A stretch of DNA of 64,000 bases from Microcoleus sp. (GCA_042408215.1 JAYFMW010000003.1:1-64000); one strand, 5' to 3'; shown: positions 42,450-52,464, numbered from the stretch's first letter. Numbers and translations are program-made. Notes: generated from the letters alone by a model not told the origin.

Positions 42450-44099
42450 CTACGGTTCGGATAGTTTTTTCACGTTGTCAACAGCCCGTTGATACCAAAT
42501 ACCTGTATTCCCTTGTTGCTTATACAAATCAGCGGCTTTTTGGTAATCTTCGATTGCACTCTGTTTGTCGTTAATAGCAGATTTGACAGTCCCCCGATTG
42601 TAGTAGGCAATAGCATTGTTAGGATTAAGCCCAATAGCCCGATCGTAATCTGCGATCGCCTCTTCTTTTCTCCCTAGGGCAGATTTGGCTGCACCCCGAT
42701 TGACGTAGGCATTAGCAAAGTTAGAATCAAGCTGAATAGCCAGATCGTAATCTGCGATCGCATCTTCTTTTCTCCCTAGGGCAGATTTGGCTGAACCCCG
42801 ATTGCTGTAGGCATTAGCAAAGTTAGAATCAAGCTGAATAGCCCGATCGTAATCTGCGATCGCATCTTCTTTTCTCCCTAGGGCAGATTTGGCTGCACCC
42901 CGATTGTAGTAGGCATCAGCATAGTTGGGATTAAGCTGAATAGCCCGATCGTAATCTGCGATCGCATCTTGGTTTTTCCCTAGGTTATACTTGGCTGAAC
43001 CCCGATTGTTGTAGGCAACATCATAGTTAGGATCAAGCTGAATAGCCCGATCGTAATCTGCGATCGCATCTTCTTTTCTCCCTAGGGCATATTTGGCTAA
43101 ACCCCGATTGTAGTAGGCAAAAGCAAAGTTAGAATCAAGCTGAATAGCCCGATCGTAATCTGCGATCGCCTCTTGTTTTTTCCCTAGGACAGATTTGGCT
43201 AAACCCCGACCGTAGTAGGCATTAGCAAAGTTAGAATCAAGCTGAATAGCCCGATCGTAATCTGCGATCGCATCTTCTTTTCTCCCTAGGGCAGATTTGG
43301 CTGAACCCCGATTGCTGTAGGCAAAAGCAAAGTTAGAATCAAGCTGAATAGCCCGATCGTAATCTGCGATCGCATCTTCTTTTCTCCCTAGGGCAGATTT
43401 GGCTGAACCTCGATTGTTGTAGGCACCAGCAAAGTTAGAATCAATCTGAATAGCCCGATCGTAATCTGCGATCGCCTCTTGTTTGTTGCCTAGGTTAGAC
43501 TTGGCTAAACCCCGATTGTTGTAGGCAATAGCATAGTTGGGATTAAGCTGAATAGCCCGATCGTAATCTGCGACCGCATCTTGTTTGTTGCCTAGGGCAT
43601 ACTTGGCTAAACCCCGATTGTAGTAGGCAAAAGCAAAGTTAGAATCAAGCTGAATAGCCCGATCGTAATCTGCGATCGCATCTTGGTTTCTCCCTAGGGC
43701 ATATTTGGCTAAACCCCGATTGCTGTAGGCAAAAGCAAAGTTAGAATCAAGCTGAATAGCCCGATCGTAATCTGCGATCGCATCTTCTTTTTTCCCTAGG
43801 TCATATTTGCCTAAACCCCGATTGTTGTAGGCAAAAGCATCGTTGGGATCAAGCTGAATAGCCCGATCGTAATCTGCAATCGCATCTTCTTTTTTCCCTA
43901 GGTCATATTTGGCATAACCCCGATTGACGTAGGCCTCAGCATAGTTGGGATTAAGCTTAATAGCCCGATCGTAATCTGCGATCGCCTCTTGGTTTCTCCC
44001 TAGGGCACATTTGGCATCACCCCGATTGTAGTAGGCATCAGCATCGTTGGGATTAAGTTTAATAGCCCGATCGTAATCTGCGAGCGATTTTGTAGTCAT
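42450..44099 (-). CDS. Tetratricopeptide repeat protein (14 near-identical full TPRs, a half repeat and a capping repeat)
   Basis: 34-aa / 102-bp period, AxAYxNRGxAKxxLGxxxxAIADYDRAIQL. Confidence 0.92.
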   Translation of the reverse strand: MTTKSLADYDRAIKLNPNDADAYYNRGDAKCALGRNQEAIADYDRAIKLNPNYAEAYVNRGYAKYDLGKKEDAIADYDRAIQLDPNDAFAYNNRGLGKYDLGKKEDAIADYDRAIQLDSNFAFAYSNRGLAKYALGRNQDAIADYDRAIQLDSNFAFAYYNRGLAKYALGNKQDAVADYDRAIQLNPNYAIAYNNRGLAKSNLGNKQEAIADYDRAIQIDSNFAGAYNNRGSAKSALGRKEDAIADYDRAIQLDSNFAFAYSNRGSAKSALGRKEDAIADYDRAIQLDSNFANAYYGRGLAKSVLGKKQEAIADYDRAIQLDSNFAFAYYNRGLAKYALGRKEDAIADYDRAIQLDPNYDVAYNNRGSAKYNLGKNQDAIADYDRAIQLNPNYADAYYNRGAAKSALGRKEDAIADYDRAIQLDSNFANAYSNRGSAKSALGRKEDAIADYDLAIQLDSNFANAYVNRGAAKSALGRKEEAIADYDRAIGLNPNNAIAYYNRGTVKSAINDKQSAIEDYQKAADLYKQQGNTGIWYQRAVDNVKKLSEP

Positions 44100-44211
44100 T
44101 GCCTTATTCCAGTTATTGAATTTTAATGAAGCTGCTTCCCCGACGGTTCAGAGAAGTACGCCGAATCCGATCGGAGTGTGTGATAATTATAAAAAATATT
44201 ATATCAAAAAA

Positions 44212-45246
44212 ATGATTACAGGGAAAACTATTGGCGGACATTACCACATAATCAGGTTATTGGGTAAAGGTGGATTTGGTGAAACCTACTTAGCACATGA
44301 CGAACATCTACCCGACAAGCCCCCGCGTGTAGTCAAGAGATTCAAGCCCCAGTCCAATGATCCCTTCTTGCTGCAAGAAGCCAAACGCCTGTTTGACAGC
44401 GAGCCTCAACACCTGTACAAGTTAGGTAGCCACGATCGCATTCCGCAGCTATTCGCCCACTTCGAGGAAAATCAAGAATATTATCTCGTCCAAGAGTTAA
44501 TTGCGGGACATGATTTGAGTCACGAATTCAACCCCTCTCAACAAACGGGAGCGAAGGGAGTTCAGTTCAATGAAAGTCAAGTCATTGAATTATTGTATGA
44601 TATTTTAGATGTATTGAAATCAGTTCATCAACAAAATATCATCCACCGAGATATCAAGCCCTCTAATCTAATGCGGCGCGATTCCGATGGTAGGATTGTC
44701 TTGATTGACTTTGGGGCTGTCAAACAAATCGGTAGCCAACTCAAATATTCTCAAGGCCAACCGCAGACAGTTCCGATCGGCACTCCGGGATATACGCCCA
44801 GCGAACAAGAAAAGGGGCATCCCAAGTTGTGCAGTGATGTCTATGCAGTCGGAATGACTGCTATCCAAGCACTGACGGGGGTATTTCCTCACGAGTTGCC
44901 AAAAGATCCCAATACCCTAGAAGTTATGTGGAGGGATCGAGTATCAGTCAGCCCAAAATTCGCAGCTATTTTAGATATAATGGTGCGATACCAATGGCAA
45001 CAGCGCTACCAGTCAGCCGATGAAGCTTTAAGTGCGATTCAGCATCTAGTAAAATCGTCAACAGCACCGACAATTGTTTCCCTTCCTCCACCTTGGCATT
45101 GGCTCAATTCACCAGCCATCAAAAAATTGTTAATCGGTTTAGTTTGCTTAGGAATTGTGGCTGTTGGTGGGATTTTTATTACTCAATTTATGAGGACACA
45201 ACCAGGCTGGCAGCCAACTTCTGCCCCAAATAAACCGGTACTTTAA
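44212..45246 (+). CDS. Hanks-type Ser/Thr protein kinase with C-terminal TM helix
   Basis: LGKGGFGETY, VVK, HRDIKPSN, IDFG, GTPGY, SDVYAVG. Confidence 0.95.
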   Translation: MITGKTIGGHYHIIRLLGKGGFGETYLAHDEHLPDKPPRVVKRFKPQSNDPFLLQEAKRLFDSEPQHLYKLGSHDRIPQLFAHFEENQEYYLVQELIAGHDLSHEFNPSQQTGAKGVQFNESQVIELLYDILDVLKSVHQQNIIHRDIKPSNLMRRDSDGRIVLIDFGAVKQIGSQLKYSQGQPQTVPIGTPGYTPSEQEKGHPKLCSDVYAVGMTAIQALTGVFPHELPKDPNTLEVMWRDRVSVSPKFAAILDIMVRYQWQQRYQSADEALSAIQHLVKSSTAPTIVSLPPPWHWLNSPAIKKLLIGLVCLGIVAVGGIFITQFMRTQPGWQPTSAPNKPVL

Positions 45247-45278
45247 ACTAGCTCAAAAACATCTCGTGTAAAAAAAAT

Positions 45279-45458
45279 ATGACTGGACAAAAATTTGACC
45301 GAATTCTGTTGATTGCCGGGTTTTTAATCGCATTAATTGCGGCGATTCCCCAAGTTTATAACTTTGAAAAACCAGGATTTTTCTGGCAAACAGATGTATC
45401 AAGTCGCCAGATTCAGCAACAGCCAAATATTCAATCCAACCCGAATGCTGGTTTATAG
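45279..45458 (+). CDS. Small single-pass membrane protein (59 aa; below the ORF-track cut-off)
   Basis: MTGQKFDRILLIAGFLIALIAAIPQVYNFEKPGFFWQTDVSSRQIQQQPNIQSNPNAGL*, 32 bp after the kinase stop. Confidence 0.5.
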   Translation: MTGQKFDRILLIAGFLIALIAAIPQVYNFEKPGFFWQTDVSSRQIQQQPNIQSNPNAGL

Positions 45459-45473
45459 GATAGCAGTTTTAGA

Positions 45474-45645
45474 GAATTCAGAAAGGCGAGCCCATAATTC
45501 ATCAAAAGGGCGATCGCCTTCCATCGTAGGGACACGGCATTGCCGTCTCCTACCGGGGGCTCAAAGGACACGGCAATGCCGTGTCCCTACCGGGCAATTA
45601 AGAAGGGCGATCGCCCTTCCTTTTTGAAGAGCGATCGCCCTTTTT
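45474..45645. repeat. HIP1-pair hairpin spacer plus GTAGGGACACGGCA REP-like palindromes
   Basis: HIP1 at 45510, 45607 and 45631; REP-like hairpins 45527-45590. Confidence 0.75.
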
Positions 45646-45718
45646 AAACTATCCGAATTGCATCAACTCAGAAGTCATGCTATAATTTGCTTATACATTA
45701 ATTTCACGCTCGATACCC

Positions 45719-46018
45719 TTGGATTATAACTTTGATTGGAATATAGCCAAAGAAAAGCAAAATATTCGCAAGCATCAATTAAATTTTCGTTTGGCTTCAA
45801 CTATTTGACGCGATCCTTATCAATTAACAATCTATGATGAAGAACACAGTCAAGATGAAGATAGATGGATTACCATAGGTTTAGATGAAACAGGCATTGT
45901 CAGGCTGGTTGTCCATACTTTTGAACAAACTGATAGCTCCTCCTGCATCATTCGGATTATTTCCGCTCGGCAAGCTACTTTCACTGAAACACAATATTAT
46001 CAAGAGAGAAAATTATGA
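45719..46018 (+). pseudogene. BrnT family toxin with internal stop codon
   Basis: FDWNIAKEKQNIRKHQLNF..TI*RDP..HSQDEDRWITIG..VVHTF..RIISARQA; in-frame TGA at 45806-45808. Confidence 0.85.
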
Positions 46019-46215
46019 AATCAGAGTATGATTTTTCTGCGTCAGAACAAGGCAAGTTTTACCATCCTGATGCTACGTTTCATTATCCGATTTATCTCGA
46101 AGCTGATGTCGAGCAGTTTGTGACTAAAATTGCTGAACATAAAAATATTGACGTTCAAGTTTTGGTCAATGAATGGCTGAGGAATAACATTAAATTAATT
46201 CAAAGTATTGAGTAG
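46015..46215 (+). CDS. BrnA-like antitoxin
   Basis: MKSEYDFS..GKFY..PIYLE..VLVNEWLR; ATGA overlap with brnT. Confidence 0.75.
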   Translation: MKSEYDFSASEQGKFYHPDATFHYPIYLEADVEQFVTKIAEHKNIDVQVLVNEWLRNNIKLIQSIE

Positions 46216-46261
46216 GTTAGAAACCCGGTTGCTTTGAGAAACTATGAACTTTCAATAAATA

Positions 46262-46420
46262 AAGAGCGATCGCCCTTTCTCACCCAGATTCAGAAAGGCG
46301 ATCGCCCATAATTCATCCAACGAGCGATCGCCCTTCTGACATCCGCGTTAATCAGCGTCCATCTGCGGTCAAAAAAGAGCGATCGCCCTTTCTAATAATT
46401 CAAAAGGGCGATCGCCCTTA
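46262..46420. repeat. Cluster of HIP1-pair hairpin spacers
   Basis: HIP1 at 46266, 46298, 46324, 46379 and 46408; consensus GCGATCGCCCTTTCT-loop-AGAAAGGCGATCGC. Confidence 0.85.
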
Positions 46421-46500
46421 TTTTGCATTCAACTAACAAAAAATTGTCATTTCAGCCAATAATTGCTAAAATGATCGCAAAATACTATTCTGATTAGCCA

Positions 46501-46722
46501 ATGAGCAACATCTCTATCAGCTTGCCAGATGAATTACTCACATACGTCAATCAAAAAGCGCCCAACCCCAGTGCTTTGATAGAAGCTCTCTTAAAACAAT
46601 GGCGAAAACAACAAGAAAACCAAGCTTTAGCAGAAGCTTGCAAGCTAATTGACGAATTAGATTTAGGATGGGATGAGGAATGGCAAGCTCAAGCGATTAC
46701 CGACTGGGAAGTATCTGGATAG
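46501..46722 (+). CDS. Ribbon-helix-helix antitoxin (MazE-like)
   Basis: ISISLPDELL..PSALIEALL; overlaps the downstream MazF gene. Confidence 0.75.
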   Translation: MSNISISLPDELLTYVNQKAPNPSALIEALLKQWRKQQENQALAEACKLIDELDLGWDEEWQAQAITDWEVSG

Positions 46723-47042
46723 CTAGATTCGATCCGTCAGTAGGAACAGAAATACGCAAAACGCGGCCTGCCTTAGTCATTTCTGGTACGCTGTTCAACG
46801 AGCGACGCAGCAAAGTGACTGTTTTGCCATTTACCTCCGCTCGTCCTCACGATCCTCGGATTTCTGCTGCTGCGATCTTAATACCTGCATCCCCACAAAA
46901 TGGTTTAGATGCAGATAGTTTGCTAGTCTGTGTCGATCCCATGACTTTCGATAAAACGAGATTAGTGCAACAACTCGGTCAATTGGAATCGGAGCTATTT
47001 TCCCAATCTCAAGAGATTTTGCAGCGCTATCTGGAATTATAG
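46680..47042 (+). CDS. PemK/MazF family toxin
   Basis: GSIWIARFDPSVGTEIRKTRPALVIS, VLPFTS. Confidence 0.9.
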   Translation: MASSSDYRLGSIWIARFDPSVGTEIRKTRPALVISGTLFNERRSKVTVLPFTSARPHDPRISAAAILIPASPQNGLDADSLLVCVDPMTFDKTRLVQQLGQLESELFSQSQEILQRYLEL

Positions 47043-47078
47043 CGATCGCCCTTTCTAATAATTCAGAAAGGCGATCGC
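47042..47078. repeat. HIP1-pair hairpin spacer
   Basis: GCGATCGCCCTTTCTAATAATTCAGAAAGGCGATCGC. Confidence 0.85.
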
Positions 47079-47132
47079 TCTTCATTCATCAATCTATAAT
47101 TTATGATTAGACAAGAGCGATATGCGATAAAT

Positions 47133-47525
47133 TCAATACCAGTCCGCGATCGCCAGTCCTGAAACTCTCGAAAACTCCTTGACATTGTGAGTAACAAGAG
47201 TTGCTTGAAGTGAAGCGGCTGTCCCTGCAATCAAAACATCGATCGGGCCGATAGGAGTACCTTTTTGCTCCAATTGAGCGCGGATTGTGGCAGCAGCAAC
47301 AGCACAATCGCGATCGAAAGGAACAACATTAACTCGGCTTAAAAGTTGCTGAAGTTGTTGGATACGTTTTGCAGGCGAAGTAGATTTAGCAATACCCACT
47401 TGCAATTCAAACAGGACGAGTGTAGAAATTCCAATTTCTTGAGGAGATACATTGGCAATGTTTTGGACAACTTGTCCTTGTCCTTTAAAATAGTAGATTA
47501 ATGTATTTGTATCCAAAATGTACAT
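47133..47525 (-). CDS. vapC: VapC PIN-domain toxin
   Basis: YILDTN, LFEL, PIGPIDVLIAGTA, LVTHNVKEFSRV. Confidence 0.92.
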   Translation of the reverse strand: MYILDTNTLIYYFKGQGQVVQNIANVSPQEIGISTLVLFELQVGIAKSTSPAKRIQQLQQLLSRVNVVPFDRDCAVAAATIRAQLEQKGTPIGPIDVLIAGTAASLQATLVTHNVKEFSRVSGLAIADWY

Positions 47526-47777
47526 CTAGAAGCTCTCTCGCAAAATGTCTTCCCCCGACTCAGCACGAATCTCTTCCAGAGTCGGAAAGTCTTCTGCCCA
47601 CGCTCCAGCTAGGGAATAAACCAGTTCCGTCCAAGGAGTTGCAGAATCTACTGTATCGGTGGATTGGTTTGCATTTAGGTACTTGGCACGAATCAACTCA
47701 GCGAAAGTCAGAATTTCGCTAGCTTGGTTTTGGGGAAGGGTTTTGACGATCGCGTATATTTGTTCAATAACAGTCAT
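47526..47777 (-). CDS. DUF2281-like antitoxin
   Basis: TLPQNQASEILTFAELI, LAGAW; abuts vapC. Confidence 0.75.
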   Translation of the reverse strand: MTVIEQIYAIVKTLPQNQASEILTFAELIRAKYLNANQSTDTVDSATPWTELVYSLAGAWAEDFPTLEEIRAESGEDILRESF

Positions 47778-47908
47778 AATCGGATTATAGATTAAGAGCA
47801 GTTTAGCTTATTTTAGCAATTATAATCGGTTTAGTTCCAAAGGCGTTAGGAGAAATTATATCGCTTCTACTTGTAGGATGGAATAACCGCTTGCATCTGG
47901 CAATTTCC

Positions 47909-48278
47909 ATGACCAACCCCATCCAGCAAGAAGCCCGCCAAATTCAAGGGCACTCTCGCCTTTACCCCCTTCGATCGGTGCCATCCCCTCAGCCGCGACT
48001 TCGACACAATTCCTGCTAGAGTAGGTTTGTACGCCTTTCGACATCGCACTGAAGGATTGCTCTACATCGGCAAAGCCAAGAACCTCCGCGATCGACTCCG
48101 AGGTGGTCACAAAGCCTTTCTCTGGGGCTGGCTCGATCGCTACGATCCTGATGATGTGAGGATCGCCTTCGTTACCCTCAACCAATGGCAAAAACCAGGG
48201 TTATTATATGAATTAGAAACCCTGATCCTTCAAGCTACAAATCCTCCCTACAACGTTAAAATTCCCAGAGAACAATGA
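47909..48278 (+). pseudogene. GIY-YIG nuclease, apparently frameshifted near 47950
   Basis: RVGLYAF..LLYIGKAKNLRDRL..H..ELE..NPPYN. The ATG at 47909 is out of frame with the conserved body, and a start at 48027 would cut the GIY motif. Confidence 0.65.
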
Positions 48279-48520
48279 ATCATACCCTCAACATCCAACA
48301 CTTGCCACCATCCGCTATTCATTCGCTGATGACCCATTTGCCGGACTATGTGAAAGTCGCCCTGATGGAAAAAGCTACGCAACTAGAATGCTCTCTCGAA
48401 GCTGCGATCGAAATGGCGATAGCTAGTTTTCTCGACTCAGAAGCTTTCAGCTTTGAAGATTGCCTATTATCGCAACGTCTTCAGGAATCAGAACTGGTAG
48501 AATCTTCGCAAAGGAAATAG
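48275..48520 (+). CDS. Small RHH/CopG-like protein coupled to the GIY-YIG gene
   Basis: ATGA overlap; LPDYVKVALMEKA..SLEAAIEMAIASFLD. Confidence 0.65.
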   Translation: MNHTLNIQHLPPSAIHSLMTHLPDYVKVALMEKATQLECSLEAAIEMAIASFLDSEAFSFEDCLLSQRLQESELVESSQRK

Positions 48521-48554
48521 GGTGCGAGATCCCTTTTGGAACTATTCGCAAAGG

Positions 48555-48589
48555 GCGATCGCCCGTTTTATAATCAAAATGGCGATCGC
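48555..48589. repeat. HIP1-pair hairpin spacer (variant)
   Basis: GCGATCGCCCGTTTTATAATCAAAATGGCGATCGC. Confidence 0.8.
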
Positions 48590-48631
48590 CTCGTAACCTA
48601 TTGATTATTGCTTCTTTAAAAGGCTTGAAAA

Positions 48632-48994
48632 TTACAAAGCAAACACGATTCTGAGAGCTAGATCGATTTTTACGATCACCTCTGGTTCAAGTTCACCTCG
48701 GATATCTACCCCACGAGAACCATAATCAATAGGGCGGGTTTGCAAACAATCAGCAATAGATTTTTTTGTTAACCCATTTCTTTCAGACGGTTCAATCTCC
48801 ACATTACTTTTAATCTTGGCTTTTTTTTCACTCCAAGCAGTAATTGGAACAACCTGGATTACAGGAACTCGCTCATTATAAGTATTGTTTGTCACAACAA
48901 CACAAGGTCTAATTTTCCCAGTTTCAGAACCCTTAGTTGGATCGAGATTAACTTCAATAATTAAACCACGTTTCAATTTTATAACTTCGGCCAT
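48632..48994 (-). CDS. PemK/MazF family toxin
   Basis: KRGLIIEVNLDPTKGSETGKIRPCVVV, VVPIT, NGLTKKSIADCLQ. Confidence 0.92.
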   Translation of the reverse strand: MAEVIKLKRGLIIEVNLDPTKGSETGKIRPCVVVTNNTYNERVPVIQVVPITAWSEKKAKIKSNVEIEPSERNGLTKKSIADCLQTRPIDYGSRGVDIRGELEPEVIVKIDLALRIVFAL

Positions 48995-49218
48995 TCTTCT
49001 AAACCTAACTCCGTCAATTCTTGCAAGTCTGTATCTTCCTTATAGATTTCTGCATAGAGAGCCGCAGATTCTTCCAATCGCTCCGCTTCTAATGCTAATT
49101 CCAGGCGTTTAATTGCGATTCTTACTACTTCATTCGCGTCTTTAAATCCATAGTTTTGACAACTTTGGAGAAATTCGATCTGAGATTCATCCAGTTCAAA
49201 TGTTTGCTCTTTCATCAT
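48979..49218 (-). CDS. CopG-like antitoxin
   Basis: YGFKDANEVVRIAI..LEESAALYAEIY; overlaps the mazF start. Confidence 0.7.
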   Translation of the reverse strand: MMKEQTFELDESQIEFLQSCQNYGFKDANEVVRIAIKRLELALEAERLEESAALYAEIYKEDTDLQELTELGLEEWPKL

Positions 49219-49312
49219 AGTAAAAATTCTGGCAAGCTTTGGTATATTACTCTTGAAAACTAGGATTAAATAAACTGCCACTTTAATGATAACATACATT
49301 TCCAAAAATTTC

Positions 49313-49345
49313 TATGACCAGCGGACGTTTTTGGATCGAGGTCAT
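49313..49345 (-). pseudogene. N-terminal stub of a ParE/RelE toxin
   Basis: ATGA overlap with parD; MTSIQKRPLVI resembles ParE N-termini, then similarity is lost. Confidence 0.45.
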
Positions 49346-49614
49346 TTTTCTTCCTGCAACCCCTGCTTCTGGGAAATACGCGATCGCACAGCTTGACGAA
49401 TCTCCATCCAATCCTCCTCAGTCATCGCCGTAGGATTTCCCGATTCCAAACCTTCTAATAACATCGCTTCCAAACGTTCTGAAGCTTTGCGTTTTTGGTC
49501 TTGGCGAATTAACTCGCGGAAATACTCGCTAGCTGTACTATAACCACCTTGAGCTACCTGTGCTTCTATATAAGTTCGCATTGAGTCAGGTAGAGAAATA
49601 TTCATGCTTGTCAC
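49342..49614 (-). CDS. ParD-like ribbon-helix-helix antitoxin
   Basis: MNISLPDSM..GGYSTASEYFRELIR..LLEGLESG. Confidence 0.88.
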   Translation of the reverse strand: MTSMNISLPDSMRTYIEAQVAQGGYSTASEYFRELIRQDQKRKASERLEAMLLEGLESGNPTAMTEEDWMEIRQAVRSRISQKQGLQEEK

Positions 49615-49714
49615 GGGTATTACTTACCTCATTTAACTCGTTATCTTATTATGGCATATTTTGCCATTTTTTGTCAAGTCTCACAACCAGTAATTTTTTA
49701 AGAGAATGGGAAAC

Positions 49715-49751
49715 GCGATCGCCCTTTCTAATAATTCAGAAGGGCGATCGA
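49715..49751. repeat. HIP1-pair hairpin spacer
   Basis: GCGATCGCCCTTTCTAATAATTCAGAAGGGCGATCG. Confidence 0.85.
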
Positions 49752-49831
49752 TCTGGCTAAATTTATGATATAATTACCCATCAGTTACACCTAGATTTGC
49801 CCACTTCTTTTGATATAAAGGAGTAAAGCCC

Positions 49832-50113
49832 GTGAAAATAGAAGAATTATTGCAAACAAAAGGAATTATTCACCGCGATCCAGAAATTATGAGCGGTTTC
49901 CCCATATTTGTCGATACCCGCGTCCCCTTAAAGACTTTGTTCGATTACCTGGAAGGTGAAAGCGGTTTCGCAGAATTTGTTAATGATTTTCCTTACCTAG
50001 AAAGTCAGGTAATTAAAGTGCTAGAAAATCTCACTAAATCGCTCCAACCAATATTCATTCACCACCACCGAAAACCCAACTTTCCTGAACTATGTCATCA
50101 GGTAACATCCTAA
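49832..50113 (+). CDS. DUF433 family protein (orphan antitoxin-like; C-terminus probably chimeric)
   Basis: IHRDPEIMSGFPIFVDTRVP..LFDYLEG..DFPYL. Confidence 0.75.
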   Translation: MKIEELLQTKGIIHRDPEIMSGFPIFVDTRVPLKTLFDYLEGESGFAEFVNDFPYLESQVIKVLENLTKSLQPIFIHHHRKPNFPELCHQVTS

Positions 50114-50412
50114 CTGTCACAGATGTTCTCAATTTCCTTGTCAGTGGAATCGATAAAACTACCCTCGAAACAGAACTTACTACTTCCGGTTGGATATCCA
50201 CTCCAGCTAGAGGAGGCTCAAAAAGCGGTGCGGGTACAATTTGGACAAGCCCAAACACTCAATACAGTGTCAGAATTATGACTCAACCTGATGGTTCATC
50301 CTATGCTCGTGTTTACAATGGCCCAGGAGGAGGTGCACCCGCAGAACAACCCCTAAACGCATCAGGAAAACCCGGAAGTCGTGGAGACACCCACTTTATT
50401 CTGCTCCCTTAA
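50092..50412 (+). CDS. Hypothetical protein resembling a stand-alone polymorphic-toxin tip
   Basis: Gly-rich; VRIM..YARVY..QPLNASGKPGSRGDTHF ending; followed by an immunity-like gene. Confidence 0.5.
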   Translation: MSSGNILTVTDVLNFLVSGIDKTTLETELTTSGWISTPARGGSKSGAGTIWTSPNTQYSVRIMTQPDGSSYARVYNGPGGGAPAEQPLNASGKPGSRGDTHFILLP

Positions 50413-50432
50413 ACCTATTTATTCGTCAGATT

Positions 50433-50858
50433 ATGAACTTTGAAGAAATTTGGCAACAATACGATTTTACCGAATCAGAATTGCTATCAATGGGGTGGCA
50501 ATTTCCCTATGATTATGTCCTCAATCTCAACTACTATTGGCAACTAACTCCAACTAATTCTACTTCTCAAGTTGCTACCACAGACCAATTTTTAAACATT
50601 ATCCTCAAAACCTGCATTCGACTGGATGTACAACTCAACCCAAATCCCGATGAGTTAAATCGAAAGCCTACAAACCTCGGCACAATCGTCGGCTGGGAGC
50701 AAGTTACTTCCTCTCCTTGGTTAGAAAATCTATCCCTTTCTCCTAATGAGTGGCTGCATCTGTTATTTGAAATTGGTGGAAACAACAAAATAGAAGCTGT
50801 TTGTCGCTCGATCGCGATCGAACAATTAGTCACACAACCCTTAGCACTCAGTTCATAA
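50433..50858 (+). CDS. Putative immunity protein (Imm50-like)
   Basis: YDFTESELLSM start and IEAVCRSIAIE end; beta-rich and acidic. Confidence 0.45.
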   Translation: MNFEEIWQQYDFTESELLSMGWQFPYDYVLNLNYYWQLTPTNSTSQVATTDQFLNIILKTCIRLDVQLNPNPDELNRKPTNLGTIVGWEQVTSSPWLENLSLSPNEWLHLLFEIGGNNKIEAVCRSIAIEQLVTQPLALSS

Positions 50859-50873
50859 AAAGATATAAATACT

Positions 50874-51119
50874 ATGTCATCCCCAGAACTAAACCTAGCC
50901 GATAACTGGGAATTCACAGAATTATGGGTAGATCCGACAGCATCACCACCTTACGTCCTAATTTTACTCGGTGACAGTTCAGGTAATAGCTGTGTCTACG
51001 ATCCTGCTCAAAATTATCAGATTGTATTTGCGAGTTCAGATTATCAAGAAGCTAAACTTTGGCTATTAGAAGATGAATACGAACGAGTAGAGCGTCGGTT
51101 ACAATTGTCAGCAGCATGA
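50874..51119 (+). CDS. Small acidic hypothetical protein
   Basis: 81 aa, co-oriented; PPYVLIL..VYDP..WLLEDEYE. Confidence 0.7.
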   Translation: MSSPELNLADNWEFTELWVDPTASPPYVLILLGDSSGNSCVYDPAQNYQIVFASSDYQEAKLWLLEDEYERVERRLQLSAA

Positions 51120-51122
51120 CCC

Positions 51123-51272
51123 CTATTTTTCGGAAAATGGGGAAGAGCGATCGGGATATTCTGCATTATAAACGTCGGAACTAATCACAACTGCTGGACG
51201 TTTTTTATTAGTAGTTTGAGCGGTAAAGGGAAACGGAACTAAAACCACATCACCAAAATTATAACTCGTCAT
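51123..51272 (-). pseudogene. Truncated PemK/MazF toxin
   Basis: FGDVVLVPFPFT..KKRPAVVISS..YN; breaks off at a HIP1-like site (51147-51154). Confidence 0.85.
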
Positions 51273-51468
51273 ACTCAGCATCCTCTGAGTTATCCCAAAT
51301 TTTAGCAAAAGCTGCTTCTGAGAGTTTAGTTGCAGTATAAACTAGCAGACGAGCTTCACTTCGCGTTAATAGGAAGTCGATAAAATCTTCTAATACCGTA
51401 ATTTGCTCTGGCGGTAAACTACGGATTTTTTCCATCAGCTTTGTTTCAGGGTTTTGGGCGATACTCAT
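51259..51468 (-). CDS. DUF2281-like antitoxin
   Basis: KIRSLPPEQITVLEDFIDFL..SEAAFAKIWDNSEDAEYDEL. Confidence 0.8.
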   Translation of the reverse strand: MSIAQNPETKLMEKIRSLPPEQITVLEDFIDFLLTRSEARLLVYTATKLSEAAFAKIWDNSEDAEYDEL

Positions 51469-51603
51469 GTTATATCTCACTTGTTTATTGACAAAACAGC
51501 ATAGATATGATATATCGTCAATTTTTGCATTCCACTAACAAATGGTATTAATAACTATCTTGGTCTAGGTAAATGCAATAGTCGATCGCATTTACCAGCC
51601 TAC

Positions 51604-52032
51604 TTACTTCGCCTTCACCACCAGCACCGAACAGTGAGCATCCGCCACCACCTGAGAGCTCACCGAACCCTCCAAAATCCGCTTCACACCAGTCAAACCC
51701 CGACAGCCGATCGCAATTACATCAGCCTGATAGATATTAGCCAAACGCACAATCTCCTCCGCCGGTTCCCCCGAAACAATCTCCAACTCGCTCTCGCAAG
51801 GCAACTTTTCCTGATAAGATTGCAGCAACCTTTCCACCTTTCGGTAAGGAACCTCATCTCCCTGAGAGTGAGGTCGATCGAGCATCATCTCAAAATCCGA
51901 CGTTCCCGAAGTCACAACATGAACTAGAATCACCTTTGTTGTCGGTTCTAGCTGGAATTTTCCCACAGCTTGCAACACCTGTTCGGCAAACTCTGAATCG
52001 TCTATCGCTACCAAAACTGTCTTCAATACCAT
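51604..52032 (-). CDS. Universal stress protein
   Basis: VLVAIDDS, GEPAEEIV, IGCRGLTGVKRILEGSVS..HCSVLVV. Confidence 0.93.
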   Translation of the reverse strand: MVLKTVLVAIDDSEFAEQVLQAVGKFQLEPTTKVILVHVVTSGTSDFEMMLDRPHSQGDEVPYRKVERLLQSYQEKLPCESELEIVSGEPAEEIVRLANIYQADVIAIGCRGLTGVKRILEGSVSSQVVADAHCSVLVVKAK

Positions 52033-52125
52033 GCCATTTCAAATCTCAGATAATAGATCTTAAATTTTTACTTGGCTGGTGGCAAGTAAAAGTTATTAAC
52101 TTCAATATGAGATTTTAGATCTCAT

Positions 52126-52464
52126 CAGAAAATTGGGTTTGAAACCCCGTCCTTTGAGGACGGCTTTATATTTCCCCTTTCGGGGTGGAGGGGTATGGTT
52201 GCCCCCTCCCTTGGAGATATGGTTGTCTCCGTTTTTCCCTTTCGGGTAATGTTCGCTTCGCCAATGTTATAAGAGCTTGTTAGACCTGCAACACTGTTCC
52301 AGTGACCTTAGAACTGTTTAATCGCAGATGACAGAGCGGAAAACTAGCGTCGCATTCTCCGGTGTCGTGACTCGAATAACGTAGCCAGTTAAGGCGATAG
52401 CTGGTCAGAATAGCTTGTTCGATTACTCTTACAAGCTCCGGCCCTTAAGGGCGGGGTTCCTGAC
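52126..52464 (-). mobile_element. Non-autonomous IS200/IS605-superfamily (IscB-type) mini-element
   Basis: Subterminal hairpins CCCCGTCCTTTGAGGACGG and CCGGCCCTTAAGGGCGGGG; ends in TGAC and is preceded by TCAT; no ORF. Confidence 0.75.
52237..52464 (-). ncRNA. HEARO / IscB omega-RNA scaffold
   Basis: Minus strand: GTCAGGAACCCCGCCCTTAAGGGCCGGAGCTTG..CTGACCAGC..CTACGTT..GACACC..TGCGACGCTAG..GCTCTGTC..TTAAACAG..CAGTG..AACATTGGCGAAGCGAACATTACC. Confidence 0.8.

Follow-up and report, generated by a model that had tools for sequence, protein, structure and literature searches.

In a 64,000-nucleotide stretch of Microcoleus sp. DNA (GCA_042408215.1 JAYFMW010000003.1:1-64000, the window, G000:C3:1-64000 in our numbering), ten modules, toxin-antitoxin (TA) gene pairs among them, lie between a Ser/Thr kinase gene and usp, and many of their ends fall on HIP1, the palindromic octamer GCGATCGC. 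The host genome, G000 (7.36 Mb, 45% GC), holds 5123 HIP1 sites, and the consulted parts of PMC5861425 and PMC13756078 describe the hyper-abundance of HIP1 as having stood without explanation for thirty years. Judged from sequence comparison, the array is genuine and is reshuffled with joins at HIP1 sites. The comparison shows small TA or toxin/immunity cassettes that are bounded by HIP1 and set apart by gene-less spacers, with a 37-40-nt hairpin as their hub; it likewise shows cassettes that are gained, lost, doubled and reordered at HIP1 sites, never inverted, and later worn by ordinary deletions.

The comparison set comprised 41 array stretches from 36 genomes, namely the window and 40 stretches from 35 genomes (34 of the genus, one of the order). 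These 40 were picked by their match to the modules or to hairpin spacer A, some being contig pieces of one genome, and a DNA search of 41 genomes recovered the modules piecewise. Metagenome data were contigs of four runs from three studies, with many pieces at least 99% identical and neither molecule ends nor circles.

Modules between the kinase gene and usp

The features of the interval, in window positions, are as follows.

44116..45458, plus strand: left flank, Ser/Thr kinase gene (kinase by Pfam) and a 59-aa open reading frame (ORF)
45459..45517, plus strand: decayed first joint: a hairpin spacer of which the right half is left, a HIP1 short of 2 bases, then a B spacer and HIP1 at 45510
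45513..45609, no strand assigned: 97-nt HIP1-bounded unit with a REP-like palindrome (arms 45526-45551 and 45565-45590)
45607..45638, plus strand: spacer F, period 24, opening into BrnTA
45634..46268, plus strand: BrnT/BrnA-like module, brnT 45719-46018 (in-frame stop 45806), partner 46015-46215
46266..46415, plus strand: full spacer chain of hairpin E, B, C and hairpin A, with HIP1 at 46266, 46298, 46324, 46379 and 46408
46411..47044, plus strand: MazEF-A module, intact, its closing HIP1 overlapped by the mazF stop codon
47042..47078, plus strand: hairpin spacer A, type copy, two HIP1 with 21 nt between them, between convergent genes
47074..47845, minus strand: VapC (47133-47525)/DUF2281 (47526-47777) module, intact
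47843..47864, plus strand: split HIP1, GCG at 47843-45, 14 other bases, ATCGC at 47860-64
47860..48526, plus strand: GIY-YIG nuclease (5' frameshift by eye)/81-aa partner module
48524..48589, plus strand: variant site GCGAGATC, hairpin spacer I, spacer D
48585..49323, minus strand: MazEF-B module, intact, its terminal GCG (49321-23) joined to the interior of parE
49321..49717, minus strand: ParDE module, truncated, with whole parD (49342-49614) and parE as a 5' stub
49715..49751, plus strand: hairpin spacer A, third copy, between divergent genes
49747..50037, plus strand: DUF433/DUF5615 module, cut inside DUF433
50038..50860, plus strand: module of 106-aa and 141-aa genes, a putative toxin/immunity pair, starting with ATCGC (50038-42) without the left part of HIP1
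50862..51154, plus strand: 3' half of a DUF6972 toxin-like/81-aa cassette (81-aa gene 50874-51119), its left join away from HIP1
51147..51154, plus strand: module-end HIP1 joined to a HIP1-like site within pemK, with just 7 bases in common
51147..51525, minus strand: PemK/DUF2281 module, pemK lacking its 3' part
51604..52032, minus strand: right flank, usp (Usp by Pfam), then hisD

Among the families named in the initial annotation of the interval, Pfam confirmed the following: BrnT (in two pieces), three PemK/MazF, PIN, GIY-YIG, ParD and DUF433 were matched, with the kinase and Usp in the flanks and two DUF2281 matches below the cut-off. The two MazF pairs that it had called intact are so, as is VapC/DUF2281, but its RHH, BrnA, toxin and immunity labels had no Pfam or NCBIfam match, and the 106-aa protein resembles polymorphic toxin tips at the feature level only. 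The named proteins that share 90% clusters with the cargo belong mostly to Microcoleus and Tychonema, and the host is probably of that group. More modules are broken than it had stated (brnT, GIY-YIG, ParDE, DUF433 and DUF6972/81-aa): brnT is interrupted by the TGA at 45806, the GIY-YIG gene carries near its 5' end one extra base relative to relatives (by eye), DUF433 has lost DUF5615, the 81-aa gene has lost DUF6972 and parE is reduced to its stub. A promoter scan gave 15 sites against 12.4 ± 3.8 expected, without excess, and a promoter for each cassette is therefore unsupported. In the array L048, an IscB-like element of two ORFs is inserted into the GIY-YIG module (L048:8728-10041). A protein of 1300-1550 aa with DUF4114 and S8 peptidase domains (L048:2829-7487 and homologues; in L048 with an M23 C-terminus) often stands ahead of an array and, together with stand-alone toxin/immunity-like cassettes (DUF6972 and others), may form a polymorphic-toxin-like arrangement.

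The kinase flank precedes a different module set in L046, L054/L218 and L029, and homology of L218 to the window stops at 45518. The 97-nt REP-like unit was absent from all 40 other arrays, and a contig of run X5 carries other spacers in its place (45513..45609). The chain E-B-C-A recurs at the left end of and within the arrays of many relatives, and the VapC/DUF2281 module has a 90% copy in another G000 array (C6). Where the window has the split HIP1 at 47843..47864, relatives have a whole HIP1 on each side and a contig of run X2 has a whole HIP1. Upstream of usp (about 4 kb), no module was found in 8 of 8 other genomes fetched. Between usp and hisD (window 52120-52450), contig depth is very high with many loose ends, marking the end of a multicopy element.

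Hairpin and spacer families

The initial annotation had described a single bulged hairpin with HIP1 arms at 45607, 46266, 46379, 47042, 48555 and 49715. All six positions hold HIP1 pairs, but only 46379, 47042 and 49715 carry the 37-mer that it had given (0-2 mismatches); 46266 is a longer relative, and 45607 and 48555 are different spacers, making four spacer types overall. The copies at 47042 and 46266 have the bulged base, that at 46379 does not. The remark of the initial annotation that the element was not seen elsewhere in the window held for the whole genome, where the 37-mer occurs three times even at 6 mismatches, each time here. The window has 6 perfect HIP1 pairs with a distance of 20-36 nt, and all of them lie inside the array. 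Type copies fold as DNA at -12.7 to -15.3 kcal/mol (z -5 to -7), much of this stability being automatic because the hairpin consists of two copies of a palindrome. As for an Rfam RNA family, 13 matches were returned, all under the gathering score.

Gene-less spacers between modules have periods of 24-55 and comprise the hairpin family (A, E and I), the short B and D, the 55-nt C and rarer types. Spacer A, with a 21-nt insert and a period of 29, has 79 family members across 36 of the 41 arrays; of 79 genus genomes 32 carry it, its copies sharing one strand in any given locus, and it is clustered in the 31 besides G000. Pattern classification of 291 joints gave 135 perfect HIP1 and 32 left-right adjacency classes. 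Spacers do not follow one another freely: C was followed by a hairpin in 57 of 57 cases, most module ends enter a hairpin, and the hairpin leads to 11 neighbour classes, for which reasons it is regarded as the hub. By eye, several hairpin subtypes stand on either side of one module.

Reshuffling among relatives

Eleven modules recur in the 41 arrays; all 55 pairs of them co-occur, and 41 of the 55 stand in both orders. Arrays with at least three modules differ in order in 31 of 31 cases (by eye). With every array oriented once, alignments of at least 200 nt were in the same orientation 1161 times and inverted in none. Module end positions stay constant while the neighbours vary, and doubled modules and chains are found in L021, L048 and L058.

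Arrays occupy sites of two kinds, one from ubiA to a LOG gene, a 180-aa gene and wecB, the other from the kinase gene to usp and hisD, with flanks also mixed between both. The ubiA site of G000 is empty, and its homology to the filled site of L022 resumes at a HIP1 ahead of the 180-aa gene. In the window, a TPR gene with 102-nt repeats (42450-44099) lies beside the kinase gene at 44116; in five relatives it stands, together with a truncated kinase, at the ubiA array site, so that large flanking blocks move too.

Breakpoints were taken pairwise, the following 250 nt being unrelated (n = 1520, pairs not independent); this filtered count supersedes that on unfiltered alignment ends (35% vs. 19%). 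A HIP1-like centre lay within 10 nt in both partners at 275 of the 1520 (18%; null 0.7%) and in either partner at 641 (42%; null 16%), and at 15 nt a HIP1-like site was present at 766. The initial annotation would have taken strain-to-strain breakpoints outside its element as a refutation; breakpoints do fall in the HIP1 pairs. Contigs from three metagenome runs connect window positions in a different order, through HIP1 sites, examples being 46417 going back to 45606-7 via a D spacer (X3, X5) and 47845 going back to 46372 via a whole HIP1 (X2).

Fine structure of the joints and decay of the arrays

Joins can be confined to the octamer. In L028 the BrnTA end runs straight into the MazEF-B start, and the MazEF-B end into a second site inside pemK; the join at window position 51147 has a pemK-internal site of its own. 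Joins are found as well at HIP1-like sites that stand alone or lie inside genes, so that the octamer itself, and not the whole hairpin, is the joint. The proposal of the initial annotation that the hairpin is a recombination or capture site is thereby modified: the array is built and shuffled at its elements, but the hairpin is one of several gene-less spacers around an octameric joint. Unlike attC, the spacer type appears to be fixed by the locus and not carried with a module into another array.

Three one-ended or split joints of the window (47843-64, 49321-23 and 50038) retain a left-hand GCG or a right-hand ATCGC. The insertion point of the SDR5 repeat is given, in the part of PMC4390886 consulted, as lying between HIP1 bases 3 and 4 (GCG^ATCGC). 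Two mirror-image variants, GCGAGATC and GATCTCGC, account for 27 and 25 of the 291 joints, in many spacers, in arrays L021-L063 and at window position 48524; a 12-base form of GCGAGATC was counted 39 times over 171 kb of arrays, and G000 has a single copy. Both variants keep GATC and lose CGATCG, partial forms occur, and their split falls at 4|5, not 3|4. They are possibly locked sites or conversion tracts. In the E family (n = 22), variants stand on both arms in 9 copies, on neither in 9 and are mixed in 4, a co-occurrence that would be expected of hairpin-templated copying and that other families are without.

Truncated modules become more frequent along the arrays (30 arrays: left third 9 of 51, middle 14 of 37, right 17 of 40; within-module permutation p = 0.0002, kin being not independent), with at least 120 nt missing as threshold and the 81-aa module and contig-edge matches excluded. 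This gradient suggests entry at the left end. Internal truncation points mostly show ordinary microhomology, and the half of the pairwise breakpoints that lies away from HIP1-like sites is put down to such decay.

Other TA loci and other cyanobacteria

Enrichment of the element beside TA genes had been proposed as a check, and HIP1 pairs do show it. With TA genes of G000 defined by five Pfam searches and this array excluded, HIP1 pairs outside long ORFs (loose definition) numbered 18 in the 84 kb around TA genes, compared with 55 in 1845 kb away from them, a 7-fold density (p = 2e-9), and single HIP1 sites were 2.4-fold denser. A gene-level comparison of TA with GNAT genes as control was not significant (20 of 74 vs. 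3 of 24, p = 0.18). Further TA clusters of G000 lie at C6:220.8-223.1 kb, C29:137.6-140.7 kb, C5:188.5-191.9 kb and C8:134-137 kb and 181.7-183 kb, and those on C5, C6, C8 and C29 each have a HIP1-bounded spacer type of their own. In L183 and L184, VapC and MazEF-A modules belong to other arrays, where unrelated local spacers surround them and HIP1 marks one of their ends.

Searched against GTDB, a generic hairpin pattern matched at least 120 stretches, and among the matches listed 79 of 80 were named cyanobacteria. At 77 pattern loci, a hand count with no matched control found 44 adjoining a TA- or nuclease-type small gene, 24 of them of a strict TA family. Of the neighbouring ORFs, 150 of 152 were scanned; two overlapping loci and one more were excluded, and the trailing TT of the pattern favours terminators. 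In Nostoc (L066, L075, L076, L078, L083, L084, L089, L091, L094, L100, L108, L112 and L120), a fixed phycobiliprotein gene is followed by a HIP1 hairpin with a T-run and then by variable genes (XisH, DUF29, glycosyltransferase or DUF2254, often XisH or DUF29), most of the variation beginning, by eye, some distance past the hairpin. In another family, the locus L192 (G030:C1:5721600-5724000) has, between its TA pairs, 5-13 HIP1-bounded C/A-rich units repeated in tandem.

Search for a recombinase and integron features

In G000, PF00589 had five matches, the nearest 408 kb from the array. The 26 PF00239 and 20 PF01797 matches all lie far from it, none of the latter within 370 kb, and a linked recombinase among them was rejected. 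An ORF that by eye is RAYT-like stands 6-8 kb from the array in two relatives. An orphan serine-recombinase-like gene of 426 aa, in single copy (G000:C6:645454-646731; L219:1955-3235), encodes Resolvase, Recombinase and zinc-ribbon domains and had one match in 26 of 28 genomes of the same class and none in 53 others of the phylum (E <= 1e-30).

At least two hairpin sites lie between cassettes in one orientation, as in an integron. Integron membership was rejected with no IntI reaching the TIGR02249 cut-off in 79 genus genomes and no attC boxes at the hairpins. The R boxes of attC have the form RYYYAAC ... GTTRRRY; with this general motif, not IntegronFinder's model, one pair was found in 6.2 kb, inside genes (50074-50195), and none at a hairpin. 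Some congeners hold IntI-like pieces (L041, G008:C20:1268-1909; L042; L043), and no such array was found within the 3.2-3.4 kb fetched around the three best. In L043, a DUF433-type pair and a GNAT-like gene stand beside the IntI-like remnant (by eye).

How the array may be rearranged

We tentatively read the locus as the product of an orientation-keeping, one-strand exchange directed to HIP1 by a host factor in trans, a reading to which we give slightly less than an even chance. On this reading HIP1 octamers, in an A/T-flanked, near-palindromic context, are the joints of a cassette array, and exchange would be aimed at HIP1 itself, with a cut at or near GCG^ATCGC. It would act on single strands, either exposed by replication or derived from transformation, in which the hairpin would restore a duplex site, and SDR5 might owe its mobility to the same host factor. 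The end that holds the full spacer chain would receive new or returning cassettes more often, and the hairpins probably also terminate transcription between cassettes.

A number of observations weigh against HIP1-directed exchange. All comparative counts and p-values come from genomes that are kin and are overstated accordingly; at 754 of the 1520 breakpoints (50%) both partners lack a HIP1-like site within 15 nt; and truncation at cryptic HIP1 sites was rejected, as the reference has a 7/8 site at only 1 of 57 distinct internal points (null 3%). A non-coding HIP1 pair is present at just 12 of 57 TA loci of G000 (7 of 14 multi-gene ones), leaving 45 of 57 without, and homologues of BrnTA, ParDE and MazEF-B also occur without HIP1 ends. 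The 3|4 split involves few joints, two of the three with ambiguous microhomology. Chimeric B/D spacers show that crossovers fall inside spacers; because spacer order is constrained, many reorderings need just one crossover in 37-150 nt of shared sequence. The back-going contig joins fit circles no better than other orders in other strains. A co-occurring recombinase, for which the initial annotation had recommended a search, was found neither beside the array nor among the 150 ORFs neighbouring pattern loci, and six tyrosine recombinase queries had no tblastn match in 120 loci.

Generic repeat recombination is consequently a strong rival, quite possible though well short of even. Slippage, single-strand annealing and RecA, acting on the spacers as short direct repeats, would need no dedicated chemistry and would yield deletion, tandem duplication and pop-out/pop-in, and transformation between relatives would mix arrays as wholes; HIP1 would stand at joints as the commonest GC-rich microhomology, and its methylated form would raise uptake and crossover. 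The complete lack of inversions fits deletion and duplication, orientation and constrained order are explained equally well, and the doubled modules and chains (L021, L048, L058), chimeric spacers, generic truncations and the lack of a recombinase nearby all agree with it. It explains less well the core-only joins, those on 7-8 shared bases and the split sites at one position, and modules among unrelated spacers in other arrays as well as the tilt of truncations along the arrays speak against it. The hairpins might instead be intrinsic terminators or insulators made from HIP1 pairs, their role at breakpoints being a by-product: those at 47042 and 48524-48589 lie between convergent genes, the A-run end of spacer C is a T-tail on the minus strand, and the Nostoc hairpin with its T-run directly follows the fixed phycobiliprotein gene. 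Taken alone we find this unlikely, as it leaves the shuffling unexplained, genes lie downstream of the copies at 49715 and 46379, termination would not call for chains of 5-8 sites, and a scan gave 9 terminator-like sites against 5.3 ± 2.3 in shuffles, long-loop hairpins not being called; it is compatible with both readings above.

Two further explanations seem very improbable to us. A derived CALIN, in which attC drifted to HIP1 hairpins and IntI acts in trans, would share with the array its uniform orientation, inter-cassette hairpins, TA cargo and polar decay, and IntI-like pieces do exist in some congeners; yet none of the 79 genomes exceeds the TIGR02249 cut-off, no array lies near the three IntI-like pieces (3.2-3.4 kb), no attC box pair stands at the hairpins, and spacers appear to follow the locus, not the cassette. 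Scarcely more credible is a four-strand site-specific recombinase on the symmetric HIP1 core, such as the 426-aa protein. Its domain set and distribution (26 of 28 against 0 of 53 genomes) suit the role, a two-base stagger would flank the central AT, and a "recombinase family protein" correlates with HIP1 in the part of PMC13756078 consulted (orthology to the 426-aa protein not checked). Yet a symmetric core should also invert, and the 1161 alignments hold 0 inversions; the N-terminal catalytic motif looks degenerate by eye, set against the motif as generally known, the Pfam match starts at model position 48, and the gene is unlinked.

The HIP1-directed reading has a much wider form, which we consider doubtful. 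A phylum-wide, integrase-free cassette system would have a host enzyme cut and join single strands at methylatable HIP1, capture any HIP1-bounded segment and add it at the leader end while copying the local spacer, building defence/TA libraries at many loci per genome; SDR5 and the spacers would be empty cassettes, and this would be a main selected function of HIP1. The locus is a natural record of HIP1 rearrangements that offers defined substrates (the 37-nt hairpin, the 150-nt chain and cassettes of 630-840 nt), and the array makes HIP1 function testable. It bears on the origin of integrase-free cassette arrays and on locus-specific sites, a question shared with integrons. If driven by an enzyme, it would be a new recombination system; otherwise it is still a case of an 8-mer organising a TA library.

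Comparison with known systems

Our literature search found no account of HIP1-jointed TA or cassette arrays, most subscription papers lying outside it, as do supplementary SDR tables that might already list such spacers, and the consulted parts of PMC3025956 and PMC5101192 hold nothing on arrays. Integrons and CALIN, as described in the portion of PMC4889954 consulted, are alike in their small cassettes in fixed orientation, hairpins, TA cargo, strain-variable order and one-sided decay. In contrast, the present arrays have no IntI and no attC boxes, their hairpins are 37-40-nt HIP1 hairpins, their spacers are gene-less and of a type apparently set by the locus, and joins occur at both spacer ends and at lone HIP1 sites.

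The pdif modules of Acinetobacter are bounded by 28-bp XerC/XerD sites in alternating orientation. They resemble the array in having accessory modules, often TA pairs, set between short sites, and an enzyme whose gene lies elsewhere; here HIP1 takes the place of those sites, in one orientation throughout (spacer A keeps to one strand per locus) and on the chromosome. REP/BIME elements with RAYT similarly form mosaic chains of short intergenic hairpin units, whereas the units of the array are bounded by HIP1 and bracket moving modules, one 97-nt unit being REP-like, and no Y1 transposase stands beside the array.

SDR5 of Nostocaceae (Elhai 2008, as reported in the consulted parts of PMC4390886, PMC5861425 and PMC13756078) is likewise a 21-nt insert tied to HIP1, only the form having been compared, and it inserts between HIP1 bases 3 and 4, which three window joints fit while the site variants split at 4|5. 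The text consulted of PMC5861425 reports no SDR-like repeat outside Nostocaceae; the spacers described here lie outside that family and, unlike the dispersed SDR5, are clustered at one or two loci, chained, and bracket gene cassettes. Site-specific recombination at HIP1 is also cited for Synechococcus PCC 7002, within the literature text consulted. As far as their consulted text goes, studies of HIP1 in recombination and transformation (Akiyama 1998; Robinson 1997; Kamoku and Nielsen, bioRxiv 10.1101/2024.09.10.611283) likewise place crossover or excision at HIP1. Those were laboratory events on plasmids or constructs, whereas the locus described here is a natural array of shuffled cassettes.

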